A stretch of DNA of 56,425 nucleotides from Burkholderiales bacterium (GCA_044867805.1 JBIOVQ010000281.1:1-56425); one strand, 5' to 3'. Positions 13,977-38,287 are shown, numbered from the stretch's first letter. Made by a program: numbers and translations. The notes: generated from the sequence alone by a model not told the origin.

Positions 13977-14639
13977 ATGCTGGTCGTGCGCAATCTCTCG
14001 AAGTCCTTCGGCGGCACGCGGCCGCGCGAATTGCTCCGCCGGATCTCGCTCGATGTCGCGACGGGCGAGTATGTCGCCATCGTGGGCGAGTCCGGCGTCG
14101 GCAAGACCACCCTGCTCAATCTGATCGCCGGGCTCGATCAGCCGGATAGCGGCACCGTAGCGCTGGATGGGAAGGAAATGTCGGCGCTGGATGACGCCGG
14201 GCGCACCCGCCTGCGGCGCAGCAGCATCGGCTTCGTGTTCCAGGCCTTCCATCTTCTGCCGCACCTGACCGTGGCGCAGAACGTCGCCCTGCCCCTGTCG
14301 CTGAATGGCGCCGACACCGCGCAAGCCGGCGAGCGTCTGCAGGAAGTTCTGGCGGCGGTCGGCCTGGATGCCGCTGCCGACGTCTATCCGCGCGAGCTTT
14401 CCGGGGGCGAAATGCAGCGGGTAGCCATCGCCCGCGCGCTGGTGCACCGCCCCTTGCTGCTGCTCGCCGACGAGCCCACCGGCAACCTGGACGCAGACGC
14501 GGCGAAACAGGTACTTACCCTGCTCCGCGATCAGGTCAAACTGGAGTCGGCGTCCGGCATCCTGGTCACGCACTCCGCGGTCGCGGCAGCGACCGCGGAC
14601 CGCGTGCTGACGCTCACCGCGGAAGGATTGAAATCCTAG
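13977..14639 (+). CDS. ABC transporter ATP-binding protein (LolD/YbbA/AttE-like)
   Basis: Walker [10 protein letters not shown], signature LSGGEMQR, Walker [13 protein letters not shown]. Confidence 0.9.
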
Positions 14640-14824
14640 ACGCAAAGTCGCAAAGCCGCAAAGGAATACGAATAATGCAATGAAGATCCGGGCGCGAAGG
14701 AAGGGAAGATAGGCAGGATTGACAGGGACTGCCGGATCGTAAGGAATGTGGCTATCCGTGCCTGGCAAACTTGGCGGTTCTAAAATTATCTCTGTCTTTC
14801 TTCGTGCCTTTGCGTCTTTGCGTC
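14639..14824. repeat. Composite CGCAAAG-class element: GACGCAAAG-TCGCAAAG-CCGCAAAG arm, ~130-nt less GC-rich interior, CTTTGCG-TCTTTGCGTC arm
   Basis: Arms at 14639-14664 and 14796-14824. The interior carries ATAGGCAGGATTGACAGG (14709-14726), shared 16/18 with 32837-32854. Confidence 0.85.
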
Positions 14825-14845
14825 CAGATTCTTGACGAGGACTGA

Positions 14846-16273
14846 ATGGCGGCGATTGCGCGCCCATGGGCTGAAGGACGATTTCTGCTCGCCTACGCAC
14901 TGGTGCTGGGCCCGTTGCGCGAGAGCCCCGGCCGCAGCGTCCTGGGTGTTATCGCCATTGCCCTCGGGGTTGCGCTGGGTGTGGCGGTGCATCTCGTCAA
15001 CTCGAGCGCCATGAACGAATTCGAGCTCGCCGCGCGGCATCTCGCCGGCGAAGCCGACGTCGTGGTGCGCGGCCCGCGCGCGGGATTCGACCAGGCGCTC
15101 TATCCCAAGCTCGCCCGGCTCCCGCAGGTCGAGGCCGCCAATCCCGCGGTGGACCTCGAGGTGCCGCTGGCCGGACGCCAGGACAGCCTGCGTATTCTCG
15201 GCTTCGACCCCTTGCGGGCCGCGCAGGTGCAGCCTTCCCTGCTACCCGAGCGCCCCGGCATGGTGCTCGACCTGTTCGATGCCGATGCCATACTGCTCAG
15301 TCCATCTGCGGCAGAATGGCTGCGGCTCGGGACCGGTGACCGGCTCACCATACAAGTGGGCACGCGCACCCTCGAGCTGCGCGTCGCGGGCCTGCTTCCG
15401 CAAGGCGCGTACCGCCAGCGCCTGGGCGTGATGGACGTCGCCTCCGCGCAGTGGCGGCTCGATCGCATCGGGCGGCTCAATCGCGTGGACCTGCGCCTGA
15501 AGCCCGGCACCGACGTGCAGGCCTTCCGCCGCGAGCTGCAGGCGATGCTTCCCGCAGGCGTGCAGGCGGTGCTTCCGGAAACCGAGGGCACCCGCGGCGC
15601 CAATCTGACGCGCGCCTACCGGCTGAACCTCGACATGCTTGCGCTGGTCGCGCTCTTTACCGGGGCCTTTCTCGTGTTTTCATCGCAGGTGCTGGCGCTG
15701 CTGCGCCGGCGCACCCAGTTTGCCCTGTTGCGGACGATCGGGGTCACGCGCGGAGCGCTCGCGGGCCAGCTGCTTGCTGAAGGCGCGCTCATCGGGGTGC
15801 TCGGCGCCGCGCTGGGCGTGCTCCTGGGCTATGCGCTGGCCCGCTACGCGCTCGCACTGGTCGGAGCCGATCTGGGAGCGGGCTACTTCCGCAGCATCGC
15901 GGCCAGCCTCGAAGCCGAGCCCCAAACCCTCGCCTGGTTCGCCGGCCTCGGCGTGTTGTTCGCGCTGCTGGGCGCCGCCGCCCCCGCGTGGGAGGCGGCG
16001 CGCCGCCCCCCGGCCCGCGCGCTGCGCTCGGGCGACGAAGAGGAAGGGCTCAAGACCGTGCCGACGTTCTGGTGGGGCGTCGCATCGGTCGTGGCCGGGC
16101 TGCTGCTCGCTCGCGCTCCTGCCATCGACGGGTTGCCGATCGCGGGCTATGTCGCGATCGGGATGGTCCTCCTGGGAGCGGTCCTCGTCATGCCCCGGCT
16201 CGCGAAGGCATGCCTGGATATCCTTCCGCTGCCGGCACGGGTCCCTGCGGCCATCGCGGTCGCCCAGCTCTAG
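14846..16273 (+). CDS. ABC exporter permease, YbbP/FtsX type, N-terminal half (first FtsX domain); ends at an in-frame TAG
   Basis: TM1, a large periplasmic domain, then an FtsX 3-TM bundle. Reading continues in the same frame after the TAG at 16271-16273. Confidence 0.8.
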   Translation: MAAIARPWAEGRFLLAYALVLGPLRESPGRSVLGVIAIALGVALGVAVHLVNSSAMNEFELAARHLAGEADVVVRGPRAGFDQALYPKLARLPQVEAANPAVDLEVPLAGRQDSLRILGFDPLRAAQVQPSLLPERPGMVLDLFDADAILLSPSAAEWLRLGTGDRLTIQVGTRTLELRVAGLLPQGAYRQRLGVMDVASAQWRLDRIGRLNRVDLRLKPGTDVQAFRRELQAMLPAGVQAVLPETEGTRGANLTRAYRLNLDMLALVALFTGAFLVFSSQVLALLRRRTQFALLRTIGVTRGALAGQLLAEGALIGVLGAALGVLLGYALARYALALVGADLGAGYFRSIAASLEAEPQTLAWFAGLGVLFALLGAAAPAWEAARRPPARALRSGDEEEGLKTVPTFWWGVASVVAGLLLARAPAIDGLPIAGYVAIGMVLLGAVLVMPRLAKACLDILPLPARVPAAIAVAQL

Positions 16274-16330
16274 GCGGCGCCGCGCCAGGCCGCGATCAGC
16301 GTCGCCGCCATCGTCACCAGCTTCAGCCTC

Positions 16331-17386
16331 ATGGTCTCCATGCTGATCATGGTGAGCTCCTTTCGCGCCTCCCTCGAGGCGTGGCTCGATCGCATGCTGC
16401 CGGCCGACCTTTACCTGCGCGCCGCGCGCTTCGGCGAGACTGCGTTCTTTTCTCCGGAGGAACAGGCGCGCATCGCTGCGACCCCCGGCGTCGAGCGCGC
16501 GGCCTTCATTCGCAGCCAGAATCTCCTGCTGACCCCCGAGCGGCCGCCCGTCACGCTGCTTGCCGGGCCGGTCGAGGCCGCCGATCCCGAAAAAGTGCTG
16601 GCCCTCACGAGCCCGCCCCTTGCGTTGCGACCGGGCGATCCCCCGCCAGTGTGGGTGTCCGAGGTCGCCGCCGACCTCTACGGCATGCGCGTGGGCGATC
16701 GCGTGCGCCTGCCACTTGGCGGGGAACCGCTCGCCTATACGGTGGCCGGGATCTGGCGCGACTACGCCCGGCAGAACGGCGCCATCGCGATGAACCGGGA
16801 TCTCTATATCAAGGTGACGGGTGACCGGCTGGTCAACGATGTGGCGCTCTGGCTTACGCCAGGGGCCGTGGTAATGGACGTGCAGCGGTCGGTGCTCGAG
16901 CGCCTGCTCGACCCCCCCGCGGTGGAAATTGCCACTACCCGCGAAGTGCGCGATATCTCCCTGGCCGCGTTCGACCGCACCTTCGCGATCACCTATGCGC
17001 TGGAAATCGCGGCGGTCCTCATCGGACTGTTCGGCGTCAGTGTCTCGTTCAGCGCGCAGGCACTCGCGCGCCGGCGCGAGTTCGGCGTTCTCCGGCACAT
17101 CGGCATGTCGCGGCGGGAAATCGGCGCGATGCTGGGCTGCGAAGGCGGGTTGATCGCGGTGCTGGGTATCCTCGTGGGACTTTTGACGGGATGGGTGGTG
17201 GGCCTGATCCTGATCCACGTCGTCAATCGCCAATCCTTCCATTGGAGCATGGAGCTGCACCTGCCATGGCTGCCGCTGGCGCTCCTGGCAGCGCTCGTCA
17301 TCGCCGCCGCCGTCGTTACCGCGGTCTGGAGCGGCCGCGCAGCGATGAGCGGGGATGTCGTTCGCGCCGTGCGTGAGGATTGGTAA
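16331..17386 (+). CDS. ABC exporter permease, YbbP/FtsX type, C-terminal half (second FtsX domain); same frame as 14846-16273
   Basis: 16331-14846 is a multiple of 3. The 19 codons between the TAG and the first ATG (AAPRQAAISVAAIVTSFSL) read as the missing start of a TM helix. Confidence 0.75.
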   Translation: MVSMLIMVSSFRASLEAWLDRMLPADLYLRAARFGETAFFSPEEQARIAATPGVERAAFIRSQNLLLTPERPPVTLLAGPVEAADPEKVLALTSPPLALRPGDPPPVWVSEVAADLYGMRVGDRVRLPLGGEPLAYTVAGIWRDYARQNGAIAMNRDLYIKVTGDRLVNDVALWLTPGAVVMDVQRSVLERLLDPPAVEIATTREVRDISLAAFDRTFAITYALEIAAVLIGLFGVSVSFSAQALARRREFGVLRHIGMSRREIGAMLGCEGGLIAVLGILVGLLTGWVVGLILIHVVNRQSFHWSMELHLPWLPLALLAALVIAAAVVTAVWSGRAAMSGDVVRAVREDW

Positions 17387-17390
17387 CAAC

Positions 17391-17522
17391 GTGAATCGTG
17401 ATTGGTGATTCGTGATTCGCAGCCACAGCTCGAAAAGGCGTCGCTTACTGGCCTGGCTCGCGGCATTGTGGGCAGCGCCTGCCGCGCCGGCTCAAATCAC
17501 AAATCACAAATCACAAATCACG
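17391..17522. repeat. Stutter hairpin of GTGATTC class: GTGAATC-GTGATTG-GTGATTC-GTGATTC ... (AAATCAC)x4
   Basis: Arms at 17391-17419 and 17493-17522 with a 73-nt spacer. It overlaps the 5' end of the next CDS. Confidence 0.85.
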
Positions 17523-18521
17523 CCTTTCGCGAAGGTCGTCCCGGGCTACAGGATGCAGTTTCCCCGGGACGAAGGAAGCCATCCAACCTTCCGGATCGAG
17601 TGGTGGTACATCACCGGCTGGCTCAACGAGGCGACCGACCCGCTCGGTTTCCAGGTCACGTTCTTTCGCGCGCGGCCGGACTTGAAGCATGACAACCCGA
17701 GCGCCTTCGCGCCGCGGCAGATGCTGATCGCGCATGCCGCCCTCTCCGATCCGGCGCAGGGGCGGCTGATCCACGCCCAGCGGGCGGCGCGTGCCGGCTT
17801 CGATCTGGCGGACGCCGAGATGGGCCGCACGCGAGTCTGGATAGACAACTGGATGCTGCAGCAGACCGGCACGACCTACCAAACCCGGATCGATGCCCGG
17901 GATTTTTCGTTCGAGCTCGCGTTCGACGCGACGCAACCGCCGCTCAAGCAGGGGCAGGACGGCTTCAGCCGCAAGGGACCTGCACGCGAATCGGCGAGCT
18001 ACTACTACAGCCTGCCGCATCTCGAGGTGCGGGGCACCGTCGCCCGCGCGGGGAGATCCCTGCCCGTGACCGGCTCCGCCTGGCTCGACCATGAGTGGTC
18101 GTCGCAATACATGGAGCAGCAGGCGGTCGGCTGGGACTGGGTCGGAATCAACCTCGCCGGCGGCGGCGCCCTGATGGCGTTCCGGATGCGCGACCGGCAC
18201 GGCGGGGCCTTCTGGGCCGGCGGAGCGCTGCGCCGGGCGAACGGCACGATGAGGATATTCTCGCCCGGCGCTATCCGTTTCACCCCGCGCCGCGACTGGC
18301 GCAGCCCCCGCACCGGAACGACTTACCCGGTGTCGTGGCTGATCAAGGCCGGCGACCTGGAACTGGCCGTCGAGCCCCTGTTCGACGACCAGGAGCACGA
18401 CACCCGGGCCTCGAGCGGCACCATCTATTGGGAAGGGGCGGTGCGCGCGCTGAGCGCAGGCGCGCCCGCCGGGCTGGGCTACCTGGAGCTCACCGGCTAC
18501 TGGCGCAGGGTAAACTTATAG
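17412..18521 (+). CDS. AttH-like / carotenoid-1,2-hydratase-like lipocalin-domain protein, secreted
   Basis: Motifs FPRDEGSHP..RIEWWYITGWL, YYYSLPHL and AWLDHEWS. Twin-arginine-like signal SKRRRLLAWLAAL. It follows the ABC ATPase and permease as in att-type clusters. The GTG start lies inside the repeat arm. Confidence 0.8.
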   Translation: MIRSHSSKRRRLLAWLAALWAAPAAPAQITNHKSQITPFAKVVPGYRMQFPRDEGSHPTFRIEWWYITGWLNEATDPLGFQVTFFRARPDLKHDNPSAFAPRQMLIAHAALSDPAQGRLIHAQRAARAGFDLADAEMGRTRVWIDNWMLQQTGTTYQTRIDARDFSFELAFDATQPPLKQGQDGFSRKGPARESASYYYSLPHLEVRGTVARAGRSLPVTGSAWLDHEWSSQYMEQQAVGWDWVGINLAGGGALMAFRMRDRHGGAFWAGGALRRANGTMRIFSPGAIRFTPRRDWRSPRTGTTYPVSWLIKAGDLELAVEPLFDDQEHDTRASSGTIYWEGAVRALSAGAPAGLGYLELTGYWRRVNL

Positions 18522-18539
18522 GCATCGGCCACGAAAGAT

Positions 18540-19541
18540 TTGTTCATGAAACTTCCCGCCATTTCCATCCCGATCATGCTGGCAGCCCTCTCGCTGCCGC
18601 TCCAGGCGCATGCGCAAACGGCGCGCATCGAGCTGCATGCATTTCGCTCGATCACGCTGACCGACCAGCAGTTTCTGAACGGCGCGAAGGAAGGCCAGCC
18701 CGTCACCATCACCGGGGAGCTGCGGCTGCCGCGCCGGGGTAATGCGCGCGTCCCGGCGGTCGTGCTGCTGCATGGCTCGGGCGGTCTTTCCGCATCGCAC
18801 GCCCGCTGGGCGGAGGAGCTGACGGGGATGGGAATCGCGACGTTCCTGGTGGACAGCTTTACCGGCCGCGGCATCGTCTCCGTGAGCGCCAACCAGGACG
18901 CGCTGGGGCGCCTCGCGATGATCATCGACGCCTACCGCGCGCTCGACCTGCTGGCGCCCGATTCGCGCATCGACGCCGACAAGATAGCGGTGCTCGGATT
19001 CTCCCGGGGCGGCCAATCGGCCCTGTACGCGAGCCTGCGCCGCTTCCAGAAGATGCACGGTCCGCCGGGCATCGAATTCGCGGCGTATATCCCCTTCTAC
19101 CCGTCGTGCAATACGCGCTTTCGCGACGACGGAAACGTGAGCGGCAGGCCCATACACATACACCATGGACTCGACGACAACTATGTCCCGATCGAGCCGT
19201 GCCAGGCTTACGTCGACCGCCTTCACGCCGCCGGAAGGAAGAATGTGGTGCTGACCGAGTATCCCGGCGCCCATCACGCTTTCGACAATCCCGGCAACCC
19301 GGCGCCGGTGCGTGCAGAGCGATCCCAGTCAACGGCCCTGTGCACGCTGCAGGAGGACGCGAGCGGGCGCATCGTCAACAGCAAGACGGGGAAGCCGTTC
19401 AACTACAAGGACACCTGCGTTCGTCTCGGGCCCACGCTTGGCTACAACGCGGAGCAGCACGCCGCCGCGCTCAAGACGGTGAAGGATTTTCTAGCGGTGG
19501 TATTCAGGCTGCCGCCGCCACCCGGCCCCGCCGGGAAGTGA
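18540..19541 (+). CDS. Dienelactone hydrolase family alpha/beta hydrolase, secreted
   Basis: Signal peptide, VVLLHGSGG, nucleophile elbow GFSRGG, and HHGLDD / GAHHAF late motifs. Confidence 0.85.
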   Translation: MFMKLPAISIPIMLAALSLPLQAHAQTARIELHAFRSITLTDQQFLNGAKEGQPVTITGELRLPRRGNARVPAVVLLHGSGGLSASHARWAEELTGMGIATFLVDSFTGRGIVSVSANQDALGRLAMIIDAYRALDLLAPDSRIDADKIAVLGFSRGGQSALYASLRRFQKMHGPPGIEFAAYIPFYPSCNTRFRDDGNVSGRPIHIHHGLDDNYVPIEPCQAYVDRLHAAGRKNVVLTEYPGAHHAFDNPGNPAPVRAERSQSTALCTLQEDASGRIVNSKTGKPFNYKDTCVRLGPTLGYNAEQHAAALKTVKDFLAVVFRLPPPPGPAGK

Positions 19542-19550
19542 CCGAAGGTC

Positions 19551-19570
19551 ACCCCCGCGACGGCGGGGGT
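19551..19570. terminator. Perfect 8-bp stem / 4-nt loop hairpin (ACCCCCGC-GACG-GCGGGGGT) between convergent genes
   Basis: Read directly from the sequence. Confidence 0.5.
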
Positions 19571-19602
19571 CCAGGTCTAGATTCCTGCCTTCGCGGGAAC
19601 TG

Positions 19603-20145
19603 TCAGTTCAGCCGGCGCGGAGCCGCCTCCTGCGCCGGCTCGGCCGGCTCCTGGGCGTTATGCAGCGCCAGGTTGACGTCCCAGTCGGTCTTCGCCACCG
19701 CCTGCCGCAGCAGCCGCGTGAAAATATGCAGGAGCTTGGTGTCCAGGGTCATGTCTATCCCCTGGCCGTGCTGCGGGTGCAGGCTCAATAGCTGCATTCC
19801 CTTTTCGCCCTTCTTGCCCTTGGCCTTGGCGAGGACCGCCGGCGCCTCGCCGAGCGGCAGGCTGCGCGGAACTTCCTGCGTAGCCTCCTCGAACTTCCTG
19901 GCGTAGTTGGCCTGCTGCGAAAACCCCTCGTGCTGGATGTCCAGCACCGTGCGGCGCGTCGCGGGATCCGCCTGCTGCCGCACCGCCTGGTCCCACTCGA
20001 GCATCTGCACCAGCATCGCCCACAGCCGCTTCACGAACCGGCGCGTAAGCCAGAAACGAAATTCGCAATTGTCCGTGGTAGACAGCCGCAGCAGCAGGCG
20101 GTCCTCGGGCTCGTCGTGGCGAATCTGGATCTGGTGGATCTTCAT
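19603..20145 (-). CDS. Hypothetical protein, immediately downstream of clpB on the same strand
   Basis: 180-aa ORF with plausible protein-like composition. I recognised no motif. It sits 47 nt after the clpB stop. Confidence 0.55.
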   Translation of the reverse strand: MKIHQIQIRHDEPEDRLLLRLSTTDNCEFRFWLTRRFVKRLWAMLVQMLEWDQAVRQQADPATRRTVLDIQHEGFSQQANYARKFEEATQEVPRSLPLGEAPAVLAKAKGKKGEKGMQLLSLHPQHGQGIDMTLDTKLLHIFTRLLRQAVAKTDWDVNLALHNAQEPAEPAQEAAPRRLN

Positions 20146-20192
20146 GGGCGGTGGCGCAGGCGCGCCGGCCGCCTATTGTAGAAGAACCGCGG

Positions 20193-22793: not shown

Positions 22794-22842
22794 CTATCCC
22801 ATCCGACTAATGGTCGAGGCCGGGCTCCGGTGACTGTATGCT

Positions 22843-22870
22843 ATATCAGGCGCTTGAAGCGGTTTTCAAG
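22843..22870 (-). promoter_or_regulatory. Candidate sigma-32 heat-shock promoter for clpB
   Basis: The minus strand reads CTTGAAA-N13-CCTGATAT, against the consensus CTTGAAA-N13-15-CCCCATNT. It lies ~50 nt upstream of the clpB ATG. Confidence 0.45.
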
Positions 22871-22973
22871 GGGTCAGGCCGGGAAAATAGCCTGTCGGAG
22901 CAGACAGTTAGAGGCTGGGTGGGCTGCCACACCTGGCCGCAAGTCCTACGCAAGTTATTGAGGAACCTGTCCC

Positions 22974-24116: not shown

Positions 24117-24132
24117 ATCAAGAATCGAATGG

Positions 24133-24311
24133 AACCGCAGATAAACGCAGATGAACGCAGATCAAAGAGTGAAACCCCTCGACGCAAAGCCGCAAAGGCG
24201 CAAAGAGAGCACTCATTGAATATTGGAAGAAATACTTTGCGGCTTTCTTCTTGTTTTGCGTCAAGTGTTTTGGGCAACCTTATCGGCATTCATCGGCGTT
24301 CATCGGCGGTT
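24133..24311. repeat. Nested composite element: outer 10-nt-unit arms (ACGCAGATRA / TTCATCGGCG) enclosing an inner CGCAAAG-class hairpin
   Basis: Outer arms at 24133-24167 and 24279-24311. Inner arms at 24178-24207 and 24235-24265. The central loop at 24208-24234 is AT-rich. Confidence 0.85.
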
Positions 24312-24337
24312 GCCTGGGTTGTTGACGTTCTTGGGAC

Positions 24338-24604
24338 ATGCCCATGAAGGTCTACGTGCCTTCGCCGCTCGCGAGCTATACGCAGGAAGCGACCACCGTT
24401 GACGCCAGCGGCCGCACCGTGGGCGAGCTGCTCGACGACCTCGACCGGCGCTACCCCGGCATCCGCTTCCGCATCATCAGCGAGCAGGACAGGATACGTC
24501 GTCATATCAGGATCTTCGTGAATCTCGAGGAGGTCCGCAGCCTGGCTGCGCCGCTGCGCCCCTCGGATGAGGTCATGATTGTAGGCGCGCTGAGCGGTGG
24601 CTGA
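24338..24604 (+). CDS. MoaD/ThiS-family ubiquitin-like sulfur-carrier-type protein (C-terminal GG)
   Basis: 88 aa with a beta-grasp-like pattern, ending ...VMIVGALSGG*. Confidence 0.8.
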   Translation: MPMKVYVPSPLASYTQEATTVDASGRTVGELLDDLDRRYPGIRFRIISEQDRIRRHIRIFVNLEEVRSLAAPLRPSDEVMIVGALSGG

Positions 24605-24690
24605 GCGCCGGACGTCAGTCGTCAGCTGTCAGCTGTCAGCCGCCAGCAGGTTTATACTGAAAACTGACAACTGACGTCTGACAGCTGCGC
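24605..24690. repeat. Stutter hairpin of GTCAGCT class: GTCAGTC-GTCAGCT-GTCAGCT-GTCAGCC ... CTGACAA-CTGACGT-CTGACAG
   Basis: 7-nt periodic arms with a ~9-nt loop (AGGTTTATA). It lies between the moaD-like stop and the cydA start. Confidence 0.88.
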
Positions 24691-29741: not shown

Positions 29742-29755
29742 AAAAACGCTACCCT

Positions 29756-29951
29756 CTTGACGCAAAGCCGCAAAGGCGCAAAGAGGATCGAGGATTCAAA
29801 AATCAAAAAATCTCGGCGCTCTTCCTCTTTCGCGGCAAGGTCCCGAGGCTCTCTTCAAGGCGTCGGCGGGTAGAATCTCGACGTAAAGCGTCAAAAGGTT
29901 CTCCCCTTTTAATCAGGGACTTTCTTTGCGTCTTCGCGCCTTTGCGTCAAG
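29756..29951. repeat. Composite CGCAAAG-class element with near-perfect termini CTTGACGCAAAG...CTTTGCGTCAAG
   Basis: Arms at 29756-29786 and 29920-29951. The ~133-nt interior has its own inverted repeats (ATCGAGGATTC / GAATCTCGAC). It lies between convergent stops. Confidence 0.88.
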
Positions 29952-29971
29952 ATATTGTTGCTAGGCGCGCG

Positions 29972-30202
29972 CTATTTCGCGTCGCTGGCGATGCCCGGGT
30001 ACTGATCCGCGCAGTCGTGCCGCTTGCGCTCGCCGTCGTACCAGTAGAGCTTGCCGGCGTCCTCGGTCCGCGCCGTTGTCTTGTGCGTGCCGTCGCAGAA
30101 CGGCTGATTCCTCGAAAGCCCGCAGCCGCAGATGAACTGGGCTTCCTGGGAGACATCCACCCTGTACGGTCCAGTTGCTGTGCGTTTCACGAGTCTCGCC
30201 AT
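29972..30202 (-). CDS. CDGSH iron-sulfur domain protein
   Basis: CGCGLSRNQPFCDGTHK is the CDGSH [2Fe-2S] motif; 76 aa. Confidence 0.85.
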   Translation of the reverse strand: MARLVKRTATGPYRVDVSQEAQFICGCGLSRNQPFCDGTHKTTARTEDAGKLYWYDGERKRHDCADQYPGIASDAK

Positions 30203-30216
30203 GCGGATTCTCCTAA

Positions 30217-30288
30217 GCCGTCAGCCGACAGACGTCAGCCGCCAGCAGTAAGTTATCGACTGGCGTCTGGCATCCGGCGTCTGGCGGC
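30217..30288. repeat. Stutter hairpin: GCCGTCA-GCCGACA-GACGTCA-GCCGCCA ... CTGGCGT-CTGGCAT-CCGGCGT-CTGGCGG
   Basis: 7-nt periodic arms with a 13-nt AT-rich loop. It lies between the gltS-like stop and the CDGSH start, on the same strand. Confidence 0.82.
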
Positions 30289-30290
30289 TC

Positions 30291-31814: not shown

Positions 31815-31825
31815 CCCGCCCCTTT

Positions 31826-31859
31826 AGGATTTTGCCGAGCGCCTGTTCGACAAAATCCT
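31826..31859 (-). promoter_or_regulatory. 5'-leader hairpin/operator candidate (AGGATTTTG-N16-CAAAATCCT) 12 nt upstream of the gltS-like start
   Basis: Perfect 9-bp inverted repeat read from the sequence, located in the divergent nadC / gltS-like intergenic region. Confidence 0.3.
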
Positions 31860-31966
31860 GAATAATGTCTCACATAATCCTCCATCTGGCTGTCCATGGA
31901 ATATCCGCCCCCACTGGCTGCTAGAATTCCCGCAAAGGCCCTTGCGAATAACTATAGTTTAATACA

Positions 31967-32800
31967 GTGGACCTGGCACCCGAGATCGAGCGCAATGTCC
32001 GCGCCGCCCTGGCCGAGGACGTGGGGAGCGGCGACCTTACCGCGCCGCTCATTCCTTCGGGCAAGCGGGTGCGCGCGACGGTGGTGTGCCGCCAAGAAAC
32101 TGTCCTGTGCGGACAGCCCTGGTTCGAAGCCAGTCTGCGCCACGTCGACCCCTCCGCGAAGGTTTCGTGGGCCGTCCAGGAAGGGGCAGACGTCCCGGCT
32201 GACATGCGGGTCTGCTCGGTCGATGCGGAAGCCCGCGCCCTCCTCGCCGCGGAGCGCGTGGCGCTCAATTTCCTCCAAACCTTGTCCGGGGTCGCAACCG
32301 CCACCCGGCGCTACGTCAAGGCGATCGCCGGGACGCGGGCGCGGATCGTGGATACCCGCAAGACCCTGCCGGGGTTGCGTCTGGCGCAGAAGTACGCCGT
32401 GCGCATCGGCGGCGGTTCCAACCATCGCATCGGCTTGTACGATGCCATGCTGATCAAGGAAAACCACATCGCCGCGGCAGGCGGCATCCGGCAGGCGATC
32501 ACGCAGGCGCGCACGCTCAAGAACAAGGGCGACTGGATACAGGTCGAGGTGGAGAGCCTCGATCAGCTGAGGGAAGCCCTCGACGCCGGCGCGGCGATGA
32601 TCCTGCTCGACAACATGACAGTGGACCAGATGCGTGAAGCAGTGAGGATCTCGGCCGGCCGCGCGGAGCTGGAAGCCTCCGGCGGCATCGCGCTCGAGAA
32701 CGCTCGCGCGATTGCCGAGACCGGCGTGGACCGCATGTCGGTGGGAAGCCTGACGAAGGATCTGAAGGCGGCCGATTTCTCGATGCGGTTTGAGCCTTAA
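31967..32800 (+). CDS. nadC: Nicotinate-nucleotide diphosphorylase (carboxylating) / quinolinate phosphoribosyltransferase
   Basis: Motifs TRKTLPGLRLAQKYAVRIGGGSNHR, MLIKENH and ILLDNM; GTG start. Confidence 0.93.
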   Translation: MDLAPEIERNVRAALAEDVGSGDLTAPLIPSGKRVRATVVCRQETVLCGQPWFEASLRHVDPSAKVSWAVQEGADVPADMRVCSVDAEARALLAAERVALNFLQTLSGVATATRRYVKAIAGTRARIVDTRKTLPGLRLAQKYAVRIGGGSNHRIGLYDAMLIKENHIAAAGGIRQAITQARTLKNKGDWIQVEVESLDQLREALDAGAAMILLDNMTVDQMREAVRISAGRAELEASGGIALENARAIAETGVDRMSVGSLTKDLKAADFSMRFEP

Positions 32801-32803
32801 ATT

Positions 32804-33073
32804 AGCCGCCAAGACGCCAAGGCGCCTAGAGAACAAATAGACAGGATTAACAGGATTAGATCAAAAGCTTTACCGCAAAGGGAACGATAATAAGATCAAG
32901 AGCCAACCCGAGTCCGCGAAGAACGGCGCCAAGAGCGGCATACAGGAAACGCCCACATATTTTGATCACCGTCCTGGCGAGCGGATGATGCGGCCGGAGT
33001 TCGGATCTCCCTTAGAGCCCGCTTTCTGCCGTAGAAAATGGCCGTCTACGCTGGCGTCCGGCGTCTGGCGTCT
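32804..33073. repeat. Composite element: GCCGCCAA-GACGCCAA-GGCGCC arm, ~220-nt less GC-rich interior, CTGGCGTC-CGGCGTCT-GGCGTCT arm
   Basis: Arms at 32804-32826 and 33050-33073. The interior begins with tandem ACAGGATTA x2 and the core shared with 14709-14726. Confidence 0.8.
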
Positions 33074-33683
33074 ATTTGGGGTCCGGAGCCTCGAACGTGA
33101 TCCCGATGTTCTTGAAGTTCTCCCACACCGCCCTGCCCCACCGCTTCACGATCGCGTCGCCGATAGCGGGGTCGAACTTGACGTCGTTGAAGGCGTCCTC
33201 CTTCCTGCCCTGAACGATGGCGAGCAGGCGCGCGTCCTTCACGTCGGAGATATTCCGGAATGTGCGGAAGACCCCTGGCGGAACGGCGATCAGGTCGAAC
33301 GGCTCGAGCACGATGCTGTGCTCCGCTTTGTCGCCCCAGAGAATCTCGAACCGCCCGGTGAGGCATAAAAAGATCTCGTGGGTGAGGCAGTGCGCGTGCA
33401 TTGCGGGCCCCTGTCCCGGCGGGCACTCCGCTATCACCACCTCGACGCCCGGTGCCCCGACCACTGCCGGCTTCGCCGCCGAGCGCTTGTTGCCCTCGGG
33501 CGCGAGCAGCACGTACACGTTCTTCGCGGCCAGGAGCTCATACGCCTCCCCAGGAATCCCCACGTTCTGCTCGGTGTAGCTCTTCTTGCTCGGCTGCAGT
33601 CGGGAAAATCGCGCCACCCGCTTTTCCATCTGCTCTGGGGTCACGTCCGGGGTTTTCACGGCCATCTCCTGGTAAAGCGGCAT
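33072..33683 (-). CDS. Cupin-domain protein
   Basis: Cupin motifs GPAMHAHCLTHEIFLCLTGRF and IAVPPGVFRTF. The ATG at 33683 (MPLYQEM) is preferred to the longer ORF-track start. Confidence 0.75.
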   Translation of the reverse strand: MPLYQEMAVKTPDVTPEQMEKRVARFSRLQPSKKSYTEQNVGIPGEAYELLAAKNVYVLLAPEGNKRSAAKPAVVGAPGVEVVIAECPPGQGPAMHAHCLTHEIFLCLTGRFEILWGDKAEHSIVLEPFDLIAVPPGVFRTFRNISDVKDARLLAIVQGRKEDAFNDVKFDPAIGDAIVKRWGRAVWENFKNIGITFEAPDPK

Positions 33684-33797
33684 TGTGCGCCGGGCGTTGT
33701 CGCTCTTCAATTCGGGAAAGAAAAAACGGGCGCCGCCTGGCGCCCGTCTATTCTCCGCGCGACGCGCGGGGGTCATCCCTCATCCTTCACCCTTCCA

Positions 33798-35780
33798 CTA
33801 CGCCCTGCGCCGCCGCTCCGCAAGATAGATGGTATTGCCGTGCCTCAGGGTCGTGCGCATGATCGCGGAAATTTCACTGGCGGCGCGCGCCTCGCAGAAA
33901 TAGTGGCCCTGTATCTCGTCGCAGCCTTCGCCGCGCAGGAAGCCAAGCTGCGCCTCGCTTTCGACTCCTTCCGCCACCACTTTGAGGCGCAGGTTGTGCG
34001 CCATGGCGATTACCGCCTGGGCGATCGCCATGCTGTCAACGTCGTCCGGAATGTCCTCGACGAAAGAGCGGTCCACTTTCACGCAGTCAATCGGGAAGCG
34101 CTTGAGATATGCGAGCGATGAATAGCCGGTGCCGAAATCATCGATTGCGACGCGGATGCCCAGGTCCTTCAGTTGCTGGAGCAGGTTGACCGCCTGCTCA
34201 GGGTTATTCATGACCATGCTCTCGGTGATCTCGAGCTCCAGGTCCGACGGCGCCAGTCCGGACGCATCGAGCGCCGCCCTGACGTCATCCAGGAGGGTTT
34301 CTCCGGCAAACTGGCGGGACGACAGGTTGACCGCGACGGGAAAGCGCCGCACGCCCTGCCTCTGCCATGTCCGGTTCTGGATGCACGCGGTTTTCAACAC
34401 CCAGGCCCCGATCGGCAGTATGAGGCCATTCTCCTCCGCGATCGGAATGAACCGGCCGGGCGCGACCCACCCGAGCTCCGGATGCTGCCAGCGCAGCAGT
34501 GCCTCCATCCCGGTGATGAGGCCGCTGGCGATGTTCACCTTGGGTTGGTAGTGCAGCGTGAATTCCTCGCGCTCCAGCGCGCGGCGCAAGCCGGATTCCA
34601 GCGCCAGGCGCTCCACGGAATAGTTGTCGATCTGCGCCGAGTAGAATTGATAGTTGTTCTTTCCCTTCTCCTTGGCGCGGTACATCGCGATGTCCGCGTT
34701 CCTCAGCAGGGTCCTGCCGTCCTCCGGGTAGACACTGATGCCGATGCTGGCGGTGATATGGATCTCCTGCCCGTCTATGACGAAAGGCTGGCCCACGGCG
34801 TCCAGGATTCGCTGCGCCACGCGGGTAATCGGCTCACGGTCGGTGAGCTCGTCCATCAGCACCACGAATTCGTCGCCTCCCTGCCGGGCCATGGTATCGG
34901 TCTCCCGCAGGCAATCGTAGAGCCGCTGCGCCGTAATCTGCAGCAGCCTGTCGCCTGCGTCGTGACCGAGGGTGTCGTTGATGTTCTTGAAGCGGTCCAG
35001 ATCCACGAACAGGACCGCCAGCTGCCTGCCGTGACGCTGCGCTCTCGCGAGAGCGTGCGACAAGCGCTCGTGGAGAAGAGTGCGATTGGGCAACGCCGTG
35101 AGCGGGTCGTGGGTGGCGACCACCCGGAGTTTTTCTTCAGCCCGTCTGCGCTCCGCGATGTCCCGGTAAACAAAATAGCAGAGCAGGCCGAGGAAGATCA
35201 GGCCGAAGCTGGTGGCGACATAGAACGTCACCAGGCTGAACTGCGAACTTTCCCGCAATTCTTCGGTCTGCCGCGCCAACAGCCCGCCTTGCGATGCTGC
35301 GAACTCGGCGAGAAGCTGGTCGATCCGCTCCCGGGTGTACTTACCCTCCTCCGTCGTTATGGCTTTTAAGGCAGCGGTCTTTGCTCCTTTCCTGGAGTAA
35401 TCGAGCGTGCTCTCGAATTCGGCTGTTCGCGCACGGATCAGCGATTGCAGCAGCTCGCTCTTCTCCAACTCACTGGAGTCATTTTCGACCAACCCCTGGA
35501 CTTCGTTCACCTGGTTTTCGGTGGAATTCAGCAGCTTCAGAGAATGCTCCAGGTAGTCCGCGTTCCCGGTGATGATGTAGTTGCGTTGTCCGGTCTCGGA
35601 GCTGATGACGGTCGACCTCACCTCCCTCAGCAAATCCCTGACCTGCAGGCCGTGCTCGACAGCCTGACTAGCTTCCGTAAGAGTGACGACGGCCCGGCCG
35701 GCGATGAATGCGTTGACGACCAGGATCGCGATGCCCAGGCCGAACCAGATGATGACTTTCCGGGGAACAGCCGGGTTCAT
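33798..35780 (-). CDS. Membrane-bound CHASE3-like sensor / GGDEF / EAL c-di-GMP turnover protein
   Basis: TM, periplasmic helical sensor, TM, then RQGGDEFVVL (GGDEF) and EALLRW, DDFGTGYSSL, KVDRSFV (EAL). Confidence 0.9.
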   Translation of the reverse strand: MNPAVPRKVIIWFGLGIAILVVNAFIAGRAVVTLTEASQAVEHGLQVRDLLREVRSTVISSETGQRNYIITGNADYLEHSLKLLNSTENQVNEVQGLVENDSSELEKSELLQSLIRARTAEFESTLDYSRKGAKTAALKAITTEEGKYTRERIDQLLAEFAASQGGLLARQTEELRESSQFSLVTFYVATSFGLIFLGLLCYFVYRDIAERRRAEEKLRVVATHDPLTALPNRTLLHERLSHALARAQRHGRQLAVLFVDLDRFKNINDTLGHDAGDRLLQITAQRLYDCLRETDTMARQGGDEFVVLMDELTDREPITRVAQRILDAVGQPFVIDGQEIHITASIGISVYPEDGRTLLRNADIAMYRAKEKGKNNYQFYSAQIDNYSVERLALESGLRRALEREEFTLHYQPKVNIASGLITGMEALLRWQHPELGWVAPGRFIPIAEENGLILPIGAWVLKTACIQNRTWQRQGVRRFPVAVNLSSRQFAGETLLDDVRAALDASGLAPSDLELEITESMVMNNPEQAVNLLQQLKDLGIRVAIDDFGTGYSSLAYLKRFPIDCVKVDRSFVEDIPDDVDSMAIAQAVIAMAHNLRLKVVAEGVESEAQLGFLRGEGCDEIQGHYFCEARAASEISAIMRTTLRHGNTIYLAERRRRA

Positions 35781-36098
35781 GGCGTTCCCGCGCCAGCAGA
35801 AATACAGATGAAGACCAACTCACCCTCCCAATATCCAAAAGTATGGCAAATAAATGGGCCCAAGCCCATTCACTTGTTCACATCTTCCTGGAGAAAACTC
35901 AAGACCTTGCGGCCGGAAACTCCCACGCTTCTTGAGGCGTGCGCGCTTAGAGCGCATGCTAGGACACTCGGCACGATTTTCGCAACGAATTCAAGCCCGA
36001 GAAACAGAGACGGCGAAATGACGCCGAAGTAATCCGCCGCCGCACTGCTGTCCGCTACCCGCACCTATGTACGGTAGACAACATATGCGCCAGCCTCG

Positions 36099-36167
36099 TG
36101 CGTCGCGCAGAACATCCACGAAGCTGCGGTCGATCTTGAGAAAATCCAGCGGGAACCGCCGAAGGTA
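36099..36167 (-). pseudogene. Relic of an EAL-domain gene
   Basis: The minus strand reads YLRRFPLDFLKIDRSFVDVLRD, preceded by a stop. Compare YLKRFPIDCVKVDRSFVEDI and YLKRFPLDALKIDRSFVRDL in the two intact EAL genes of this window. The flanking sequence no longer reads as EAL. Confidence 0.55.
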
Positions 36168-36335
36168 CTAGCAGGTCACGCACGATGATGGGGACAGATT
36201 CTTGTTCGTGTTCGCAAGGTGCGGATGACTACGCTACCCCTGTGGTCACGAGAACGCAAAGACACCGCACATCGCCGCGAATGATGAATGAGCCGGGCAG
36301 CCGTGAAAAGGGAAAAAGACCATATTACCGATGGA

Positions 36336-36845
36336 TCAGCGCATCTCGATGCACGAGTTTACGCCTTCCGCGCATTTTGTCGGGGGCTCCAGGACAAACA
36401 TCATCGAGTCAAAATCGAGCATGTCGGCGTATCGGTTCTCGCCACGCTCACGCCACACGCGCAACGTCTCTGCGAATAAATCACTGCCCAGATGATCGTA
36501 GCCGCGGCAGCGCTTTTCCTCGTGCTCGAGCACCGAGGGGGTCCCCACGTATTGAACGTCAATGTAGATGTCGCAAGCCCCGCGCCAGAAATCCGGCCGC
36601 GCGCAGCTATCGAGGGACGTCTCCGGGATCGGCGTGCCCGCGGGCACCTTGATGCAATAGCCGCGCATGGCGATCCGCGCCACGTAGCGCGTCTCGATGC
36701 GCAGCGTGGGCCAGCCTGGAACGGGCGCATCTTTCAGCACGGGCTGGTTGGCGGTTCCCTCAATCCGCGCCGGCGCCTGCGGCGCGACCTGCGCGCAGGC
36801 GGTCGCGAGAACGAGGACTACCAGCAACGGCGAATAACGCTTCAC
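36336..36845 (-). CDS. Hypothetical lipoprotein
   Basis: Lipobox LVLATAC after a short basic N-terminus; 169 aa; GTG start. Confidence 0.6.
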   Translation of the reverse strand: MKRYSPLLVVLVLATACAQVAPQAPARIEGTANQPVLKDAPVPGWPTLRIETRYVARIAMRGYCIKVPAGTPIPETSLDSCARPDFWRGACDIYIDVQYVGTPSVLEHEEKRCRGYDHLGSDLFAETLRVWRERGENRYADMLDFDSMMFVLEPPTKCAEGVNSCIEMR

Positions 36846-36958
36846 GGCGTGCCTCGCGTATCAGTATAGATCTCAACCCGCTTCTCGAGCCCCTTCTCGA
36901 GCACGACGATCCGCGCAATGCGCGCACACGGCGATCCGGGGGTCACGTAGAGCTTCAC
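36842..36958 (-). pseudogene. 38-codon ORF resembling only the N-terminal beta-alpha-beta of a glutathione S-transferase
   Basis: The ORF reads VKLYVTPGSPCARIARIVVLEKGLEKRVEI, then YTDTRGTP*. Its stop overlaps the GTG start of the lipoprotein gene (GTGA). No SD is visible. Confidence 0.4.
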
Positions 36959-36971
36959 GAGAAGAACGGCC

Positions 36972-37048
36972 GCCAGATGCCAGACGCCAGTCAGTGTGCC
37001 GGTAGTTCCATTTTGTTCTTCTTTGCGGCTTTGCGCCTTTGCGTCAAG
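36972..37048. repeat. Chimeric half-elements: GCCAGAT-GCCAGAC-GCCAG (GGCGTCT class) followed by a solo CTTTGCG-GCTTTGCG-CCTTTGCGTCAAG arm
   Basis: The two arms are not complementary to each other. The pair lies just downstream of the thrC stop. Confidence 0.75.
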
Positions 37049-37058
37049 ATTTTCTACG

Positions 37059-38180
37059 TCACTTCGGCAAGTGCTCGCGTATCGCCCGCTCCACCGCCTT
37101 CAGCTCGGCATCGATGGTCGCCGGCTTCGCGCTCTGCGCGATCGCCGCGTCGGGGTCCTTCAGCCCGTGGCCGGTGAGCGTGCAGATGATGCTGCTGCCC
37201 TCACCGATCCTGCCCAGCTCCAGGTCCTTCAGCACCCCGGCCACCGCGATAGCCGAAGCCGGCTCGCAGAATATCCCTTCGGTGCGCGCCAGCAGCTTCT
37301 GCACGTGCAGGATTTCCTCGTCCGTGCATTCGGCAAACCACCCGCCCGACTCGCGGCATGCCGCGAGCGCCTGCTGCCAGGACACGGGGTTGCCGATGCG
37401 GATCGCGGTTGCGACGGTTTCGGGGTTTTCCACCGGCCTGCCGCGCACGATCGGTGCGGCGCCGGAAGCCTGGTAGCCCAGCATGATCGGGCGCCGATCC
37501 GCGATCCTGGAAGTCCCGTATCGCCGCATGGCTGCTTCCTGCTTGAGCGCCTGGGTGCTCTCGCCCGTCGCTTCCGAGTAGCCGATCCAGTGCGCCGTGA
37601 TATTGCCCGCGTTGCCCACCGGCAGCGCGTGATAGTCGGGCGCGCCGCCCATCGCCTCGATCACCTCGAAGGCGACCGTCTTCTGGCCCTGGAGGCGGTA
37701 GGGATTGATCGAATTGACGATGTTGACCGGCAGCGACCGGGCGGCCTCCTGCACCAGGCGCATGCCGTCATCGAAATTGCCGCGGATCTGCAGCACGCGC
37801 GAGCCGTGCATCATCGCCTGGGAGAGCTTGCCCAGCGCGATCTTGCCCTCAGGGATCAGGACGAAGCAGGCGATCCCCGCCCGCGCGGCGTAGGCCGCGG
37901 CGGACGCCGAAGTGTTGCCGGTGGAGGCGCAAATGATCGCCTTTGCGCCCTCTTCCACCGCGCGCGTGACTGCCATCGTCATGCCGCGGTCCTTGAACGA
38001 GCCCGTCGGGTTGAGTCCTTCGAACTTGGCCAAGAGCCGCACTTTCTTGCGCACGAGCCCCGGCAGGTTGCTGAGCTCGATCAACGGCGTCGCGCCCTCG
38101 TTGAGCGAGACGGCGCGCGTGCTCGCCGCGACCGGCAGGCGGTCGCGGTACTTGTCGATCAGTCCAGAGTAGTGACTCAT
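37059..38180 (-). CDS. thrC: Threonine synthase
   Basis: PLP-lysine motif [10 protein letters not shown] and [12 protein letters not shown] at 38180 ([12 protein letters not shown]). Confidence 0.92.
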
Positions 38181-38186
38181 GCAAAC

Positions 38187-38287
38187 CTTCGACGCAAAGT
38201 CGCAAAGGCGCAAAGGATTACCAAATTACGGCAAAGCCAATCACTCAACCCATTTTCTCCCTCTTTGCGGCTTCGCGGCTTTGCGTC
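38187..38287. repeat. CGCAAAG-class hairpin in the hom-thrC intercistronic gap
   Basis: Arms at 38187-38216 (CTTCGACGCAAAGTCGCAAAGGCGCAAAGG) and 38260-38287 (CCTCTTTGCGGCTTCGCGGCTTTGCGTC). The right arm touches the hom stop. Confidence 0.88.

Follow-up and report, generated by a model that had tools for sequence, protein, structure and literature searches.

CGCAAAG-armed inverted repeats of a Burkholderiales bacterium as one sequence family among foldback spacers downstream of genes

The window analysed here, a 56,425-nt stretch of DNA from a Burkholderiales bacterium (GCA_044867805.1, JBIOVQ010000281.1), harbours five loci built of the octamer CGCAAAG(N), which an earlier note made from the sequence alone had taken for a MITE family. 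These loci are one sequence family among foldback spacers distributed over the whole window and not a separate family. Short-period arrays, mostly inverted pairs, were detected in 18 of the 35 intergenic spacers, with a vocabulary of at least eight unit types of 7–15 nt in 56 kb. All 18 lie downstream of genes: arrays are present in 13 of 22 co-directional and five of seven convergent spacers, and in none of the six divergent ones (hypergeometric P for this absence about 0.008, our own calculation; gene boundaries taken from a crude GC3 caller and precomputed calls). On the whole, the elements resemble hairpins of the REP or terminator type more than a classic miniature transposon.

Structure of the CGCAAAG loci and of the other foldback spacers

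The arm positions given in the earlier note were confirmed at all five loci, with deviations of a few nucleotides at most. Four loci are inverted pairs of CGCAAAG(N)x3 and CTTTGCG(N)x3, with left arms (ACGCAAAG-NCGCAAAG-NCGCAAAG) at 14640-14663, 24182-24205, 29760-29783 and 38192-38215 and right arms at 14800-14824, 24235-24262 (degenerate), 29924-29947 and 38263-38286; the fifth is the array at 37021-37044 (Table 1). The heptamer CGCAAAG occurs 36 times in the window (12.3 ± 3.7 expected), and its triple array (up to two mismatches) eight times, compared with none in 100 shuffles. All five loci are intergenic, and a TAG stop codon is directly followed by ACGCAAAG at 14637 and at 38289. The termini are conserved, as the note had proposed, a complementary YTNG...CNAR reaching 3–4 nt past the unit (CTTG/CAAG at 29756/29948; also at 37045). 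Terminal inverted repeats of the MITE kind, with complementary arms and YTNG/CNAR ends, are found at four loci, the arms of the remaining one being non-cognate. Two left arms have an identical 27-nt stretch in common (24181-24207 and 29759-29785).

The interiors, 29, 46, 136–144 and 140 nt long, are indeed less GC-rich than the window (0.31–0.50 versus about 0.65). When cores were compared with one another, no internal sequence common to the CGCAAAG copies was found (29–144 nt; z<3 versus shuffles); the sole core matches above the shuffle level were self-matches to the reverse strand. The predicted fold of element 1 as a whole amounts to -74.3 kcal/mol, its stem being prolonged into the core by pairing of a purine-rich left half with a pyrimidine-rich right half, and those of elements 3 and 5 to -85/-82 and -43.8 kcal/mol (z=-4.7), respectively. 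Element 2, the 24178 element, is nested within a pair of 10-mer arms (24136-24165 and 24279-24309); the resulting composite (24119-24341) has a predicted fold of -63/-76 kcal/mol, and the degenerate inner element (24176-24268) alone reaches only z=-1.9. Across the elements of the window the predicted folds range from -20 to -108 kcal/mol, and the intact elements tested against shuffles gave z values of -3.7 to -5.4.

Table 1. Positions of the CGCAAAG loci and related elements in the window
Feature	Position	Strand	Description
Element 1, 5' arm	14640-14663	+	ACGCAAAG TCGCAAAG CCGCAAAG; immediately follows the upstream gene's TAG stop (14637-14639)
Element 1, core	14664-14799	+	GC 0.49; contains ATAGGCAGGATTGACAGG (14709-14726)
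Element 1, 3' arm	14800-14824	+	CTTCGTGC CTTTGCGT CTTTGCGT C; ends 22 nt ahead of ATG (14846)
CGTGATT/AAATCAC element	17390-17521	+	encloses the AttH-like gene's start codon and signal peptide; right arm inside the CDS
Palindromic composite, whole	24119-24341	+	223-nt insertion relative to L115, L117, L274 and L275; flanks CCTGAA/CATGAA
Composite, outer 10-mer arm	24136-24165	+	CGCAGATAAA CGCAGATGAA CGCAGATCAA
Element 2 (CGCAAAG), 5' arm	24182-24205	+	ACGCAAAG CCGCAAAG GCGCAAAG
Element 2, core	24206-24234	+	29 nt, GC 0.31
Element 2, 3' arm (degenerate)	24235-24262	+	CTTTGCGG CTTTCTTC TTGTTTTGCGTC
Composite, outer 10-mer arm (imperfect complement)	24279-24309	+	TTATCGGCAT TCATCGGCGT TCATCGGCGG
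GTCAGCT/ACTGACA element	24615-24690	+	unit 24621-24627 missing in GCA_044866855.1
Element 3, 5' arm	29760-29783	+	preceded by CTTG; between convergent genes
Element 3, core	29784-29923	+	140 nt, GC 0.50; internal hairpins of its own
Element 3, 3' arm	29924-29951	+	CTTTGCGT CTTCGCGC CTTTGCGT CAAG
Related element	32804-33073	+	CGCCAAG(N) x3 (8-mer) arm and CTGGCGT x3 (7-mer) arm; core has ATAGACAGGATTAACAGG
Hybrid element	36961-37058	-	between stop of threonine-synthase-like (PALP) gene and start of GST-like gene
Hybrid, 3' arm	36971-36990 (on +)	-	CTGGCGT x3
Hybrid, 5' arm	37021-37048 (on +)	-	CGCAAAG x3
Element 5, arm	38192-38215	+	adjoins RBS and start codon of the downstream gene (- strand genes)
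Element 5, core	38216-38262	+	about 46 nt, GC 0.41
Element 5, arm	38263-38286	+	abuts the upstream gene's TAG stop (38287-38289, - strand)

The array at 37021-37044, formerly regarded as a solo arm, turned out to be, on the minus strand, the 5' arm of a complete element that extends from stop codon to start codon. The two arms of this hybrid element are non-cognate and therefore form no hairpin (z=+1.17); that it does not fold at all runs counter to the hairpin reading. Recombination between elements, which the note had deduced from the hybrid, does not follow, since turnover of units could yield such a hybrid just as easily. Meanwhile, the two 18-mers cited for an exchange of cores and arms between element classes do lie at 14709-14726 and 32837-32854, the pattern derived from them having two matches versus 0.03 expected. 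No third copy of the 18-mer was found, and the local-alignment shuffle test of the two cores stayed below z=3; with one 18-mer pair as all that speaks for it, the proposed shuffling was not supported.

The transcribed strand was not favoured in predicted RNA stability (six elements agree with gene direction and five disagree). G.U pairs follow the minus strand in 11 of 16 elements, which looks like an effect of replication-strand composition. Canonical U-tract terminators were not clearly enriched in the window (14 versus 11.3 ± 4.0; 22 versus 12.4 ± 3.9), none of the calls coincides with an element, and no U-tract follows the stems. The Rfam search of the window yielded no matches at the gathering score.

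Orthologous sites in related genomes and occurrence in other phyla

Along about 28.6 kb (17193-45780), the differences between the window and the near-identical assembly GCA_044866855.1 amount to a single 7-nt unit, a 1-nt indel and 22 SNPs. The unit at the AttH-like gene reads CGTGATT in the window, GACTGAC in the related genome L275 and CGTGACT in L117 and L163, and L132 has a lone 7-bp inverted repeat; within each genome the two arms match one another. The unit variants have spread through both arms, and complementarity has therefore been kept. The loop at this site encodes a conserved RRxLLAWLA signal peptide, and in L167 the ancestral start of this gene, MSRRKLL, has CGCAAAG arms on either side. 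At the site of element 1, L117 carries a CGCAAAG hairpin with a shorter and largely different core. Elsewhere, the orthologous sites of relatives are occupied by non-repetitive GC-rich hairpins or other arrays, or there is no spacer; the distribution among relatives is patchy, and abundance is lineage-specific (1.6 versus 0.06 per 10 kb). These comparisons show whole units being gained or lost by slipped-strand mispairing, and elements being inherited at orthologous sites while their cores turn over. The "core" at orthologous sites is host sequence and the arms change in concert, which shows that the elements evolve in place rather than being inserted as one contiguous piece.

Empty sites in relatives, which the note had asked for, were nevertheless found for the composite 24119-24341, which is absent from four related genomes (L115, L117, L274 and L275); in these, the stop codon of the BNR gene overlaps the thiS start as ATGA. 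A 6-nt duplication, C[C/A]TGAA, flanks the composite at this single site with an empty counterpart; the duplication is needed for function too, as both codons, stop and start, are restored by it. Contiguous insertion into continuous host sequence fits the composite, but not the L167 CGCAAAG or the CGTGATT-class hairpins.

CGCAAAG hairpins right after stop codons also occur in Chloroflexota, Planctomycetota, Acidobacteriota, Gemmatimonadota and others. In 21 of 33 CGCAAAG hairpins, an arm lies within about 45 nt of the end of an ORF of at least 120 aa, compared with 15% of random positions (ORF-end test; GC3 gene calls were made separately on high-GC loci), and the purine-rich arm lies on the 5' side with a preference of 54:5 across phyla. 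In Chloroploca and other Chloroflexia the elements are conserved over their whole length, and in one Chloroflexota genome (L098) a solo CGCAAAG array and a solo CTTTGCG array enclose a DDE transposase and an HNH gene, the sole candidate for an autonomous copy and a weak lead. The array was found on only five viral contigs. A scan with the reversed unit GAAACGC returned 61 loci, most of which are unpartnered direct arrays; because this unit, being CGCAGAAA, neighbours CGCAAAG in one repeat vocabulary, it is not an independent control. The literature search for tandem CGCAAAG strings retrieved nothing relevant. A Nostoc locus displays the inverted arrangement GGGGAGT...ACTCCTA.

Origin and probable role of the elements

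The explanation we prefer, with about an even chance of being right, is that the elements are foldback hairpins at gene 3' ends which evolve in place via slippage and probably serve as terminator or mRNA-end structures. Each element fills the space from the upstream stop codon to the RBS of the next gene or, between convergent genes, to the opposite stop codon. The stem consists of 3–5 tandem copies of a 7–15 nt unit and their reverse complements, and the "core" is ordinary spacer or even coding sequence of the host. On transcripts, such putative REP/BIME-like or terminator-like stem-loops may mark or protect 3' ends and insulate neighbours. The foldback would also loop out the whole spacer and thereby join the stop codon to the next start codon, which may be why the elements are tolerated even within operons. 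Evolution in place alone does not account for the presence of the same octamer at five loci in 24 kb, two of them with identical 27-nt arms, or for the clean insertion of 223 nt where the ATGA overlap lies; template-switch copying, gene conversion between hairpins and occasional insertion are candidate ways by which one unit could have spread over several loci.

Part of the MITE proposal has stood, namely a real repeat family with inverted arms, short conserved termini and one insertion. That the elements are a true MITE or foldback transposon, whose CGCAAAG arms represent terminal inverted repeats of reiterated transposase-binding sites mobilised in trans by a transposase from elsewhere, is in our opinion unlikely. 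The same arms and YTNG/CNAR ends at five loci, the identical 27-nt arms, the patchy distribution, the whole-length conservation in Chloroflexia and the transposase locus of L098 would all agree with it, as would the 223-nt insert missing from four relatives, which is a palindrome over nearly its whole extent and has a 6-nt duplication at its flanks. However, the cores are unrelated, host coding sequence lies between the arms at orthologous sites (in one case between CGCAAAG arms), no transposase was found within the 56-kb window, only five viral contigs bear the array, and the stop and start codons at the one empty site need the duplication anyway. Moreover, at least eight unit families in 56 kb would demand many transposases; the same architecture recurs with at least eight other unit sequences, and transposase-specific termini are therefore implausible.

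It also seems quite unlikely that the elements are a neutral by-product, i.e. chance inverted repeats expanded by hairpin-stimulated slippage and quasipalindrome correction under permissive repair, with no function and simply tolerated after genes. Such an origin is consistent with the unit-number polymorphism, the lineage-specific abundance, the extension of arrays up to coding boundaries and into dispensable coding linkers, a strand bias that tracks composition and not transcription, and the persistence of the non-folding hybrid. The strict absence of arrays from divergent spacers and the 5' preference of the purine-rich arm across phyla argue against it, as does the survival of arm complementarity through unit changes in several genomes, although template-switch correction could do likewise without selection. 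Very unlikely, finally, is that the arrays bind a nucleoid or regulatory protein as double-stranded DNA, one subunit per 7–8 bp unit, with inverted arrays bridging a DNA loop. Ribbon-helix-helix proteins bind heptads or 8-bp boxes, and 3–5 tandem units in opposite-strand pairs at variable distance are what the IHF/HU proposal for Geobacter metallireducens describes; the AATCACA units at 17493-17521 presumably resemble the WATCACW heptads of the omega repressor. Nevertheless, at least eight unrelated units in 56 kb and unit switches between sister genomes would need a fast-changing set of proteins, and the complementarity kept by co-varying arms is not required of a double-stranded site.

Several other candidates were dropped: TTGAC as an inward -35 box, which lacks a suitably spaced -10; integron attC sites, as the termini do not match and the genes here are syntenic housekeeping genes located on either strand; DNA uptake sequences; stop codons in all frames, which holds for TGA-containing heptamers but not for CGCAAAG; and Shine-Dalgarno sequestration, as AAAGG(A) stands behind several left arms in this clade, a pattern that does not extend across phyla.

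If the preferred reading of 3'-end hairpins is right, self-complementary arrays replace conventional terminator hairpins in more than half of the gene-3' spacers of this soil Burkholderiales window. The series at the AttH-like gene, from a single 7-bp inverted repeat to 4–5 units with three co-varying unit sequences, offers a rare view of hairpin repeats possibly arising and growing without a transposase, and bears on the origin of REP-like elements and STRRs. In practice, the arrays hide true start codons in annotation, heptamer tracts in coding regions are one slip away from a frameshift, and in assembly and strain typing hairpin loci mutate faster than their surroundings. It is conceivable, if improbable, that slippage and template switching, independently of any transposase, make, expand, homogenise and copy foldback stems at gene ends. 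If true, such stems would supplant ordinary terminator hairpins in some lineages of many phyla and could overwrite dispensable coding termini; the process would be a general de novo route to REP-like elements, and one class would unite cyanobacterial STRRs, the paired sites of Geobacter and the present elements.

Relation to known repeat systems

Like intrinsic terminators, the elements place a stable stem-loop right after the stop codon, one being common to a convergent pair, and relatives have ordinary GC-rich hairpins at the element sites; unlike terminators, they have no U-tract, and their stems of 20–70 bp contain periodic mismatches and enclose loops of up to 140 nt. Foldback (FB) transposons (Drosophila; Galileo, Tetris) have long variable inverted arms of short tandem repeats with a variable or absent centre, but they are eukaryotic, kilobase-sized, dependent on P- or MULE-type transposases, flanked by target-site duplications and not linked to gene 3' ends.

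REP/BIME/REPIN sequences are GTAG- or CGTC-tagged palindromes of Enterobacteria and Pseudomonas (PMC3733652, PMC3116915). As here, they are extragenic, hairpin-forming, present in many copies of species-specific families and located mostly downstream of genes and in operons; roles in termination, mRNA stabilisation and insulation have been proposed. The stems described here even end in GACG...CGTC, and they lie downstream of genes, yet no short conserved GTAG/CGTC-tagged palindrome is present: REPs are single fixed-sequence palindromes of 20–40 bp, whereas the present elements are tandem arrays of 7–15 nt units of many sequences. REPINs, for their part, show conservation along the entire element and are tied to RAYT transposases (IS200/IS605-type tyrosine transposase).

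Intergenic heptamer arrays are represented by cyanobacterial STRRs and the TAACTGA repeats of Beggiatoaceae (PMC4679880). These, too, are short intergenic tandem heptamers of many unit types and patchy phylogeny, but they have been described as direct repeats located mostly upstream of start codons, with inverted pairing and arm co-evolution outside their definition.

The closest description concerns the paired tandem hepta-, octa- and nonanucleotide sites of G. metallireducens (Gmet_I classes 1–3; Aklujkar et al. 2009, PMC2700814), which were read as binding sites of IHF/HU "global regulators" (PMC2700814). By the published description these are, as here, 3–5 tandem units of 7–9 nt in opposite-strand pairs at variable distance. 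There are several unit families per genome and tens of pairs, which are intergenic (e.g. proB-proA) and lacking in a sister species; several families and absence from close relatives were likewise found in the present case, judged by the published text and not by sequences. The units differ (GTTGCTYN, TCTCCGTS, MTYCTGA), and that work did not address hairpin formation, slippage or turnover at orthologous sites. G. metallireducens has a described, if unexplained, equivalent of the present elements, which are a variant on a known, poorly characterised kind.

Inverted tandem arrays at gene ends

The heptamer CGCAAAG occurs 36 times in the window against 12.3 ± 3.7 expected, and triple octamer arrays with no more than two mismatches were found eight times, compared to none in 100 shuffles. 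The arms are located where the earlier note had placed them, and the interiors (29-144 nt, GC 0.31-0.50 vs ~0.65 for the window) are indeed less GC-rich than the window as a whole. The stems continue 3-4 nt past the CGCAAAG arrays as YTNG...CNAR. These loci do not constitute a separate class: other units, recognised by Tandem Repeats Finder and direct reading of the window, show the same design.

Arrays identified in the window
Unit	Position	Remark
CGCAAAG, inverted pair (element 1)	14640-14663 / 14800-14824	
CGCAAAG, inverted pair (element 2)	24182-24205 / 24235-24262	
CGCAAAG, inverted pair (element 3)	29760-29783 / 29924-29947	
CGCAAAG, inverted pair (element 5)	38192-38215 / 38263-38286	
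CGCAAAG, fifth array (hybrid locus)	37021-37044	
AGTTGGC	10761	
GGTGATA	12434	
CGTGATT / CGTGAAT	17390, 46447, 47518	
CGCAGATAAA (10-mer)	24136	nested around CGCAAAG element
GTCAGCT	24621	
AGCCGTC / CTGGCGT	30216, 33051, 36971	
CGCCAAG	32807	
ACGAGTG	39625	
CAAGCTA	41334	
AAGGATG	51434	
GATGAAGCGTGACAC (15-mer)	49555-49720	largest element; ~70-nt arms, 4.6-4.7 copies; between convergent genes; fold -108.6 kcal/mol

The elements have hairpin potential, with predicted fold energies of -20 to -108 kcal/mol and fold z-scores of -3.7 to -5.4 for the intact elements tested. They are positioned at the 3' ends of genes. Of the spacers 25 nt or longer (35 in all), those with arrays are 13 of the 22 co-directional, 5 of the 7 convergent and none of the 6 divergent ones (hypergeometric P ~0.008, our own calculation). 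Arms adjoin or overlap stop codons, as in TAG followed directly by ACGCAAAG at 14637 and at 38289 (- strand), while the gene ending at 47529 does so with a TGA within a CGTGATT array. Canonical U-tract terminators show no clear enrichment in the window, and none coincides with an element. In transcripts the elements would form structures resembling terminators or REPs, and foldback would render them harmless within operons. GC skew is negative across the whole window. Regardless of gene orientation, the - strand gives the better fold, with a larger number of G.U pairs, in 11 of 16 hairpins, suggesting that the arms are subject to a mutational bias of the replication strand.

One of the few canonical-looking terminators (35876-35847, - strand; 13-bp stem and T-run) lies in a 555-nt spacer of lower GC (35781-36335). 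The divergent spacer 31815-31966, devoid of tandem arrays, contains a simple inverted repeat, AGGATTTTG...CAAAATCCT; since relatives conserve GCGCTAGAATCG there, the sequence is probably a promoter or operator.

Unit turnover at orthologous sites

The window matches contig JBIOUI010000214.1 of the MAG GCA_044866855.1, and the genome collection's closest relatives are MAGs of soil Burkholderiales and Usitatibacteraceae-like MAGs. The elements are surrounded by ordinary genes in conserved synteny, among them clpB, thiS, cydAB, nadC, homoserine dehydrogenase and a threonine-synthase-like gene. Over the ~28.6 kb aligned (window 17193-45780), the GCA_044866855.1 contig differs by 22 SNPs, one 1-nt indel and the absence of exactly one GTCAGCT unit (24621-24627) of a hairpin arm, which is the sole length difference besides the indel; the CGCAAAG elements are the same in both. 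Slippage by whole units therefore happens within the time-scale of strain divergence. The paired-array trait clusters within a narrow clade, with a density of 1.6 per 10 kb in the window vs 0.06 in 80 related loci (strict criterion).

In more distant relatives (L-numbers denote loci from other genomes of the collection), whole units are gained and lost and their type is exchanged. At the site of element 1, L117, the flanking genes of which share ~77-85% nucleotide identity with the window, carries a CGCAAAG hairpin of 2+3 units from the same TAG stop; its core is much shorter and has only a short GCAATGAA stretch in common with the window. L118 harbours a GC-rich hairpin without repeats. At the sites of elements 4 and 5, relatives bear other arrays (AGTGATGC, GCGACGR, GTTTCGA).

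In the case of the AttH-like gene (17412-18521), the start codon and a twin-arginine-type signal peptide are enclosed by the hairpin 17390-17521, the right arm of which is translated as QITNHKSQIT. The sequence between the arms encodes a conserved signal peptide of this type in all relatives, and the unit varies: the window has CGTGATT; it is GACTGAC in L275, CGTGACT in L117 and L163, mixed in L118 and L119, and just a single 7-bp inverted repeat (GCGTGAA...TTCACGC) in L132. In L167 the site is taken by a CGCAAAG hairpin, with the left arm ending at ATG, the loop encoding MSRRKLL and the CTTTGCG arm encoding the hydrophobic part of the signal peptide. Both arms match each other within every genome, i.e. 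their units change in concert. As the arms flank host sequence, they form and diverge to the left and right of a stretch that was already in place, which a single contiguous insertion cannot bring about.

In the deposited annotation the gene begins 3' of the hairpin, near window position 17553 (our coordinate conversion). Because a one-unit slip in the perfect (CAAATCA)x4 tract inside the CDS would shift the reading frame, the gene is a candidate for phase variation.

Insertion, recombination and the origin of the arms

To the earlier note the CGCAAAG loci looked like a MITE family, with cores and arms apparently shuffled between element classes. Several nearby loci of the window are occupied by CGCAAAG with identical arms, and the cores are unrelated from copy to copy. 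The two similar 18-mers (14709-14726 and 32837-32854) on which the shuffling was based are both present, the derived pattern matching twice vs 0.03 expected, but these are the only copies in the window, and the shuffle test between the two cores gave a z below 3. A strict MITE model does not pass the shared-core test or, at some sites, the contiguous-insertion test, and no transposase was found among the window genes, nor any Rfam match in the window. In favour of insertion stands the composite 24119-24341, in which 10-mer arms surround element 2 between the stop of a BNR gene and the start of thiS. It is missing from L115, L117, L274 and L275, where the genes overlap as ATGA. This 223-nt insert is palindromic nearly to its ends, with CCTGAA to its left and CATGAA to its right, and provides the best evidence for insertion, although selection would likewise call for the CCTGAA/CATGAA duplication.

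The array at 37021 had been taken for a solo arm fused to a half-arm by recombination. Both arm classes are present, but the array belongs to a complete stop-to-start element on the - strand (5' arm CGCAAAG x3, 3' arm CTGGCGT x3), which fails to fold (z=+1.2). Since CGCCAG(A), CGCCAAG and CGCAAAG are single steps apart, unit turnover in one arm accounts for this hybrid as well as recombination does. A MITE-type process may be the way in which arms spread, and a transposase-independent mechanism making the hairpin repeats seems rather improbable. Sequence-specific DNA binding to the arrays is unlikely because the units are many and turning over.

A gene of unknown function near the hybrid locus (36336-36960, - strand; 169 aa) is probably longer; its N-terminal segment VKLYVTPGSP..., starting with GTG at 36958-36960, is conserved in L117 and by eye resembles a glutathione S-transferase N-terminus.

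Other phyla and known systems

The pattern GACGCAAAG-NCGCAAAG-NCGCAAAG matched, at the least, more than 113 loci of the genome collection, those among the matches listed belonging to Chloroflexota, Planctomycetota, Chlamydiota, Acidobacteriota, Gemmatimonadota, Bacteroidota, Verrucomicrobiota and Proteobacteria. For the 99 fully flanked arrays among these listed matches, CTTYGCG units are found within 300 nt downstream in 54, upstream in 5 and not at all in 40, which places the purine-rich arm on the 5' side in 54 of the 59 paired cases; a long ORF ends at an arm in 21 of 33 hairpins vs 15% of random positions. Since other unit types are plentiful in these loci and a related-unit scan of the collection yielded 61 loci, CGCAAAG is one among many units and no universal signal.

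In Chloroploca spp. (L001, L008, L034, L048, L077) and in Chloroflexia/Caldilineaceae MAGs (L009, L012, L094, L096), elements with CGCAAAG arms occur in multiple copies that are conserved from end to end, flanks and loop included. In contrast to the window copies, these have the look of true REPIN- or MITE-type families. In Candidatus Chloroploca mongolica (L098, 3067-7086), a solo CGCAAAG x3 and a solo CTTTGCG x3 array stand 4 kb apart, and the ORFs between them carry HNH endonuclease and DDE_Tnp_1 domains, representing either mobile DNA inserted in a hairpin or an autonomous element. A Thermoanaerobaculia MAG (L111, 1355-2060) carries nested CGCAGAG/CGCGGAG, CGCAGATAA and CGCAAAG arrays, with CTCTGCG and ATCTGCG partners ~400 nt off; although from another phylum, it matches window 24136-24309 in both its unit vocabulary and its nesting.

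The window elements are a real feature for which a precedent, if an obscure one, is known. Their eukaryotic look-alike is the Foldback elements of Drosophila. Some features are held in common with REP/BIME/REPIN elements (PMC3733652) and with heptamer arrays (PMC4679880). The closest description, as likened from the published text, is that of Geobacter metallireducens, the genome of which contains 24, 21 and 8 site pairs. Each site consists of 3-5 octa-, nona- or heptanucleotide repeats in tandem, and the two sites of a pair lie on opposite strands with variable spacing; these pairs are absent from G. sulfurreducens, and IHF/HU-type regulators were guessed to bind them (PMC2700814).
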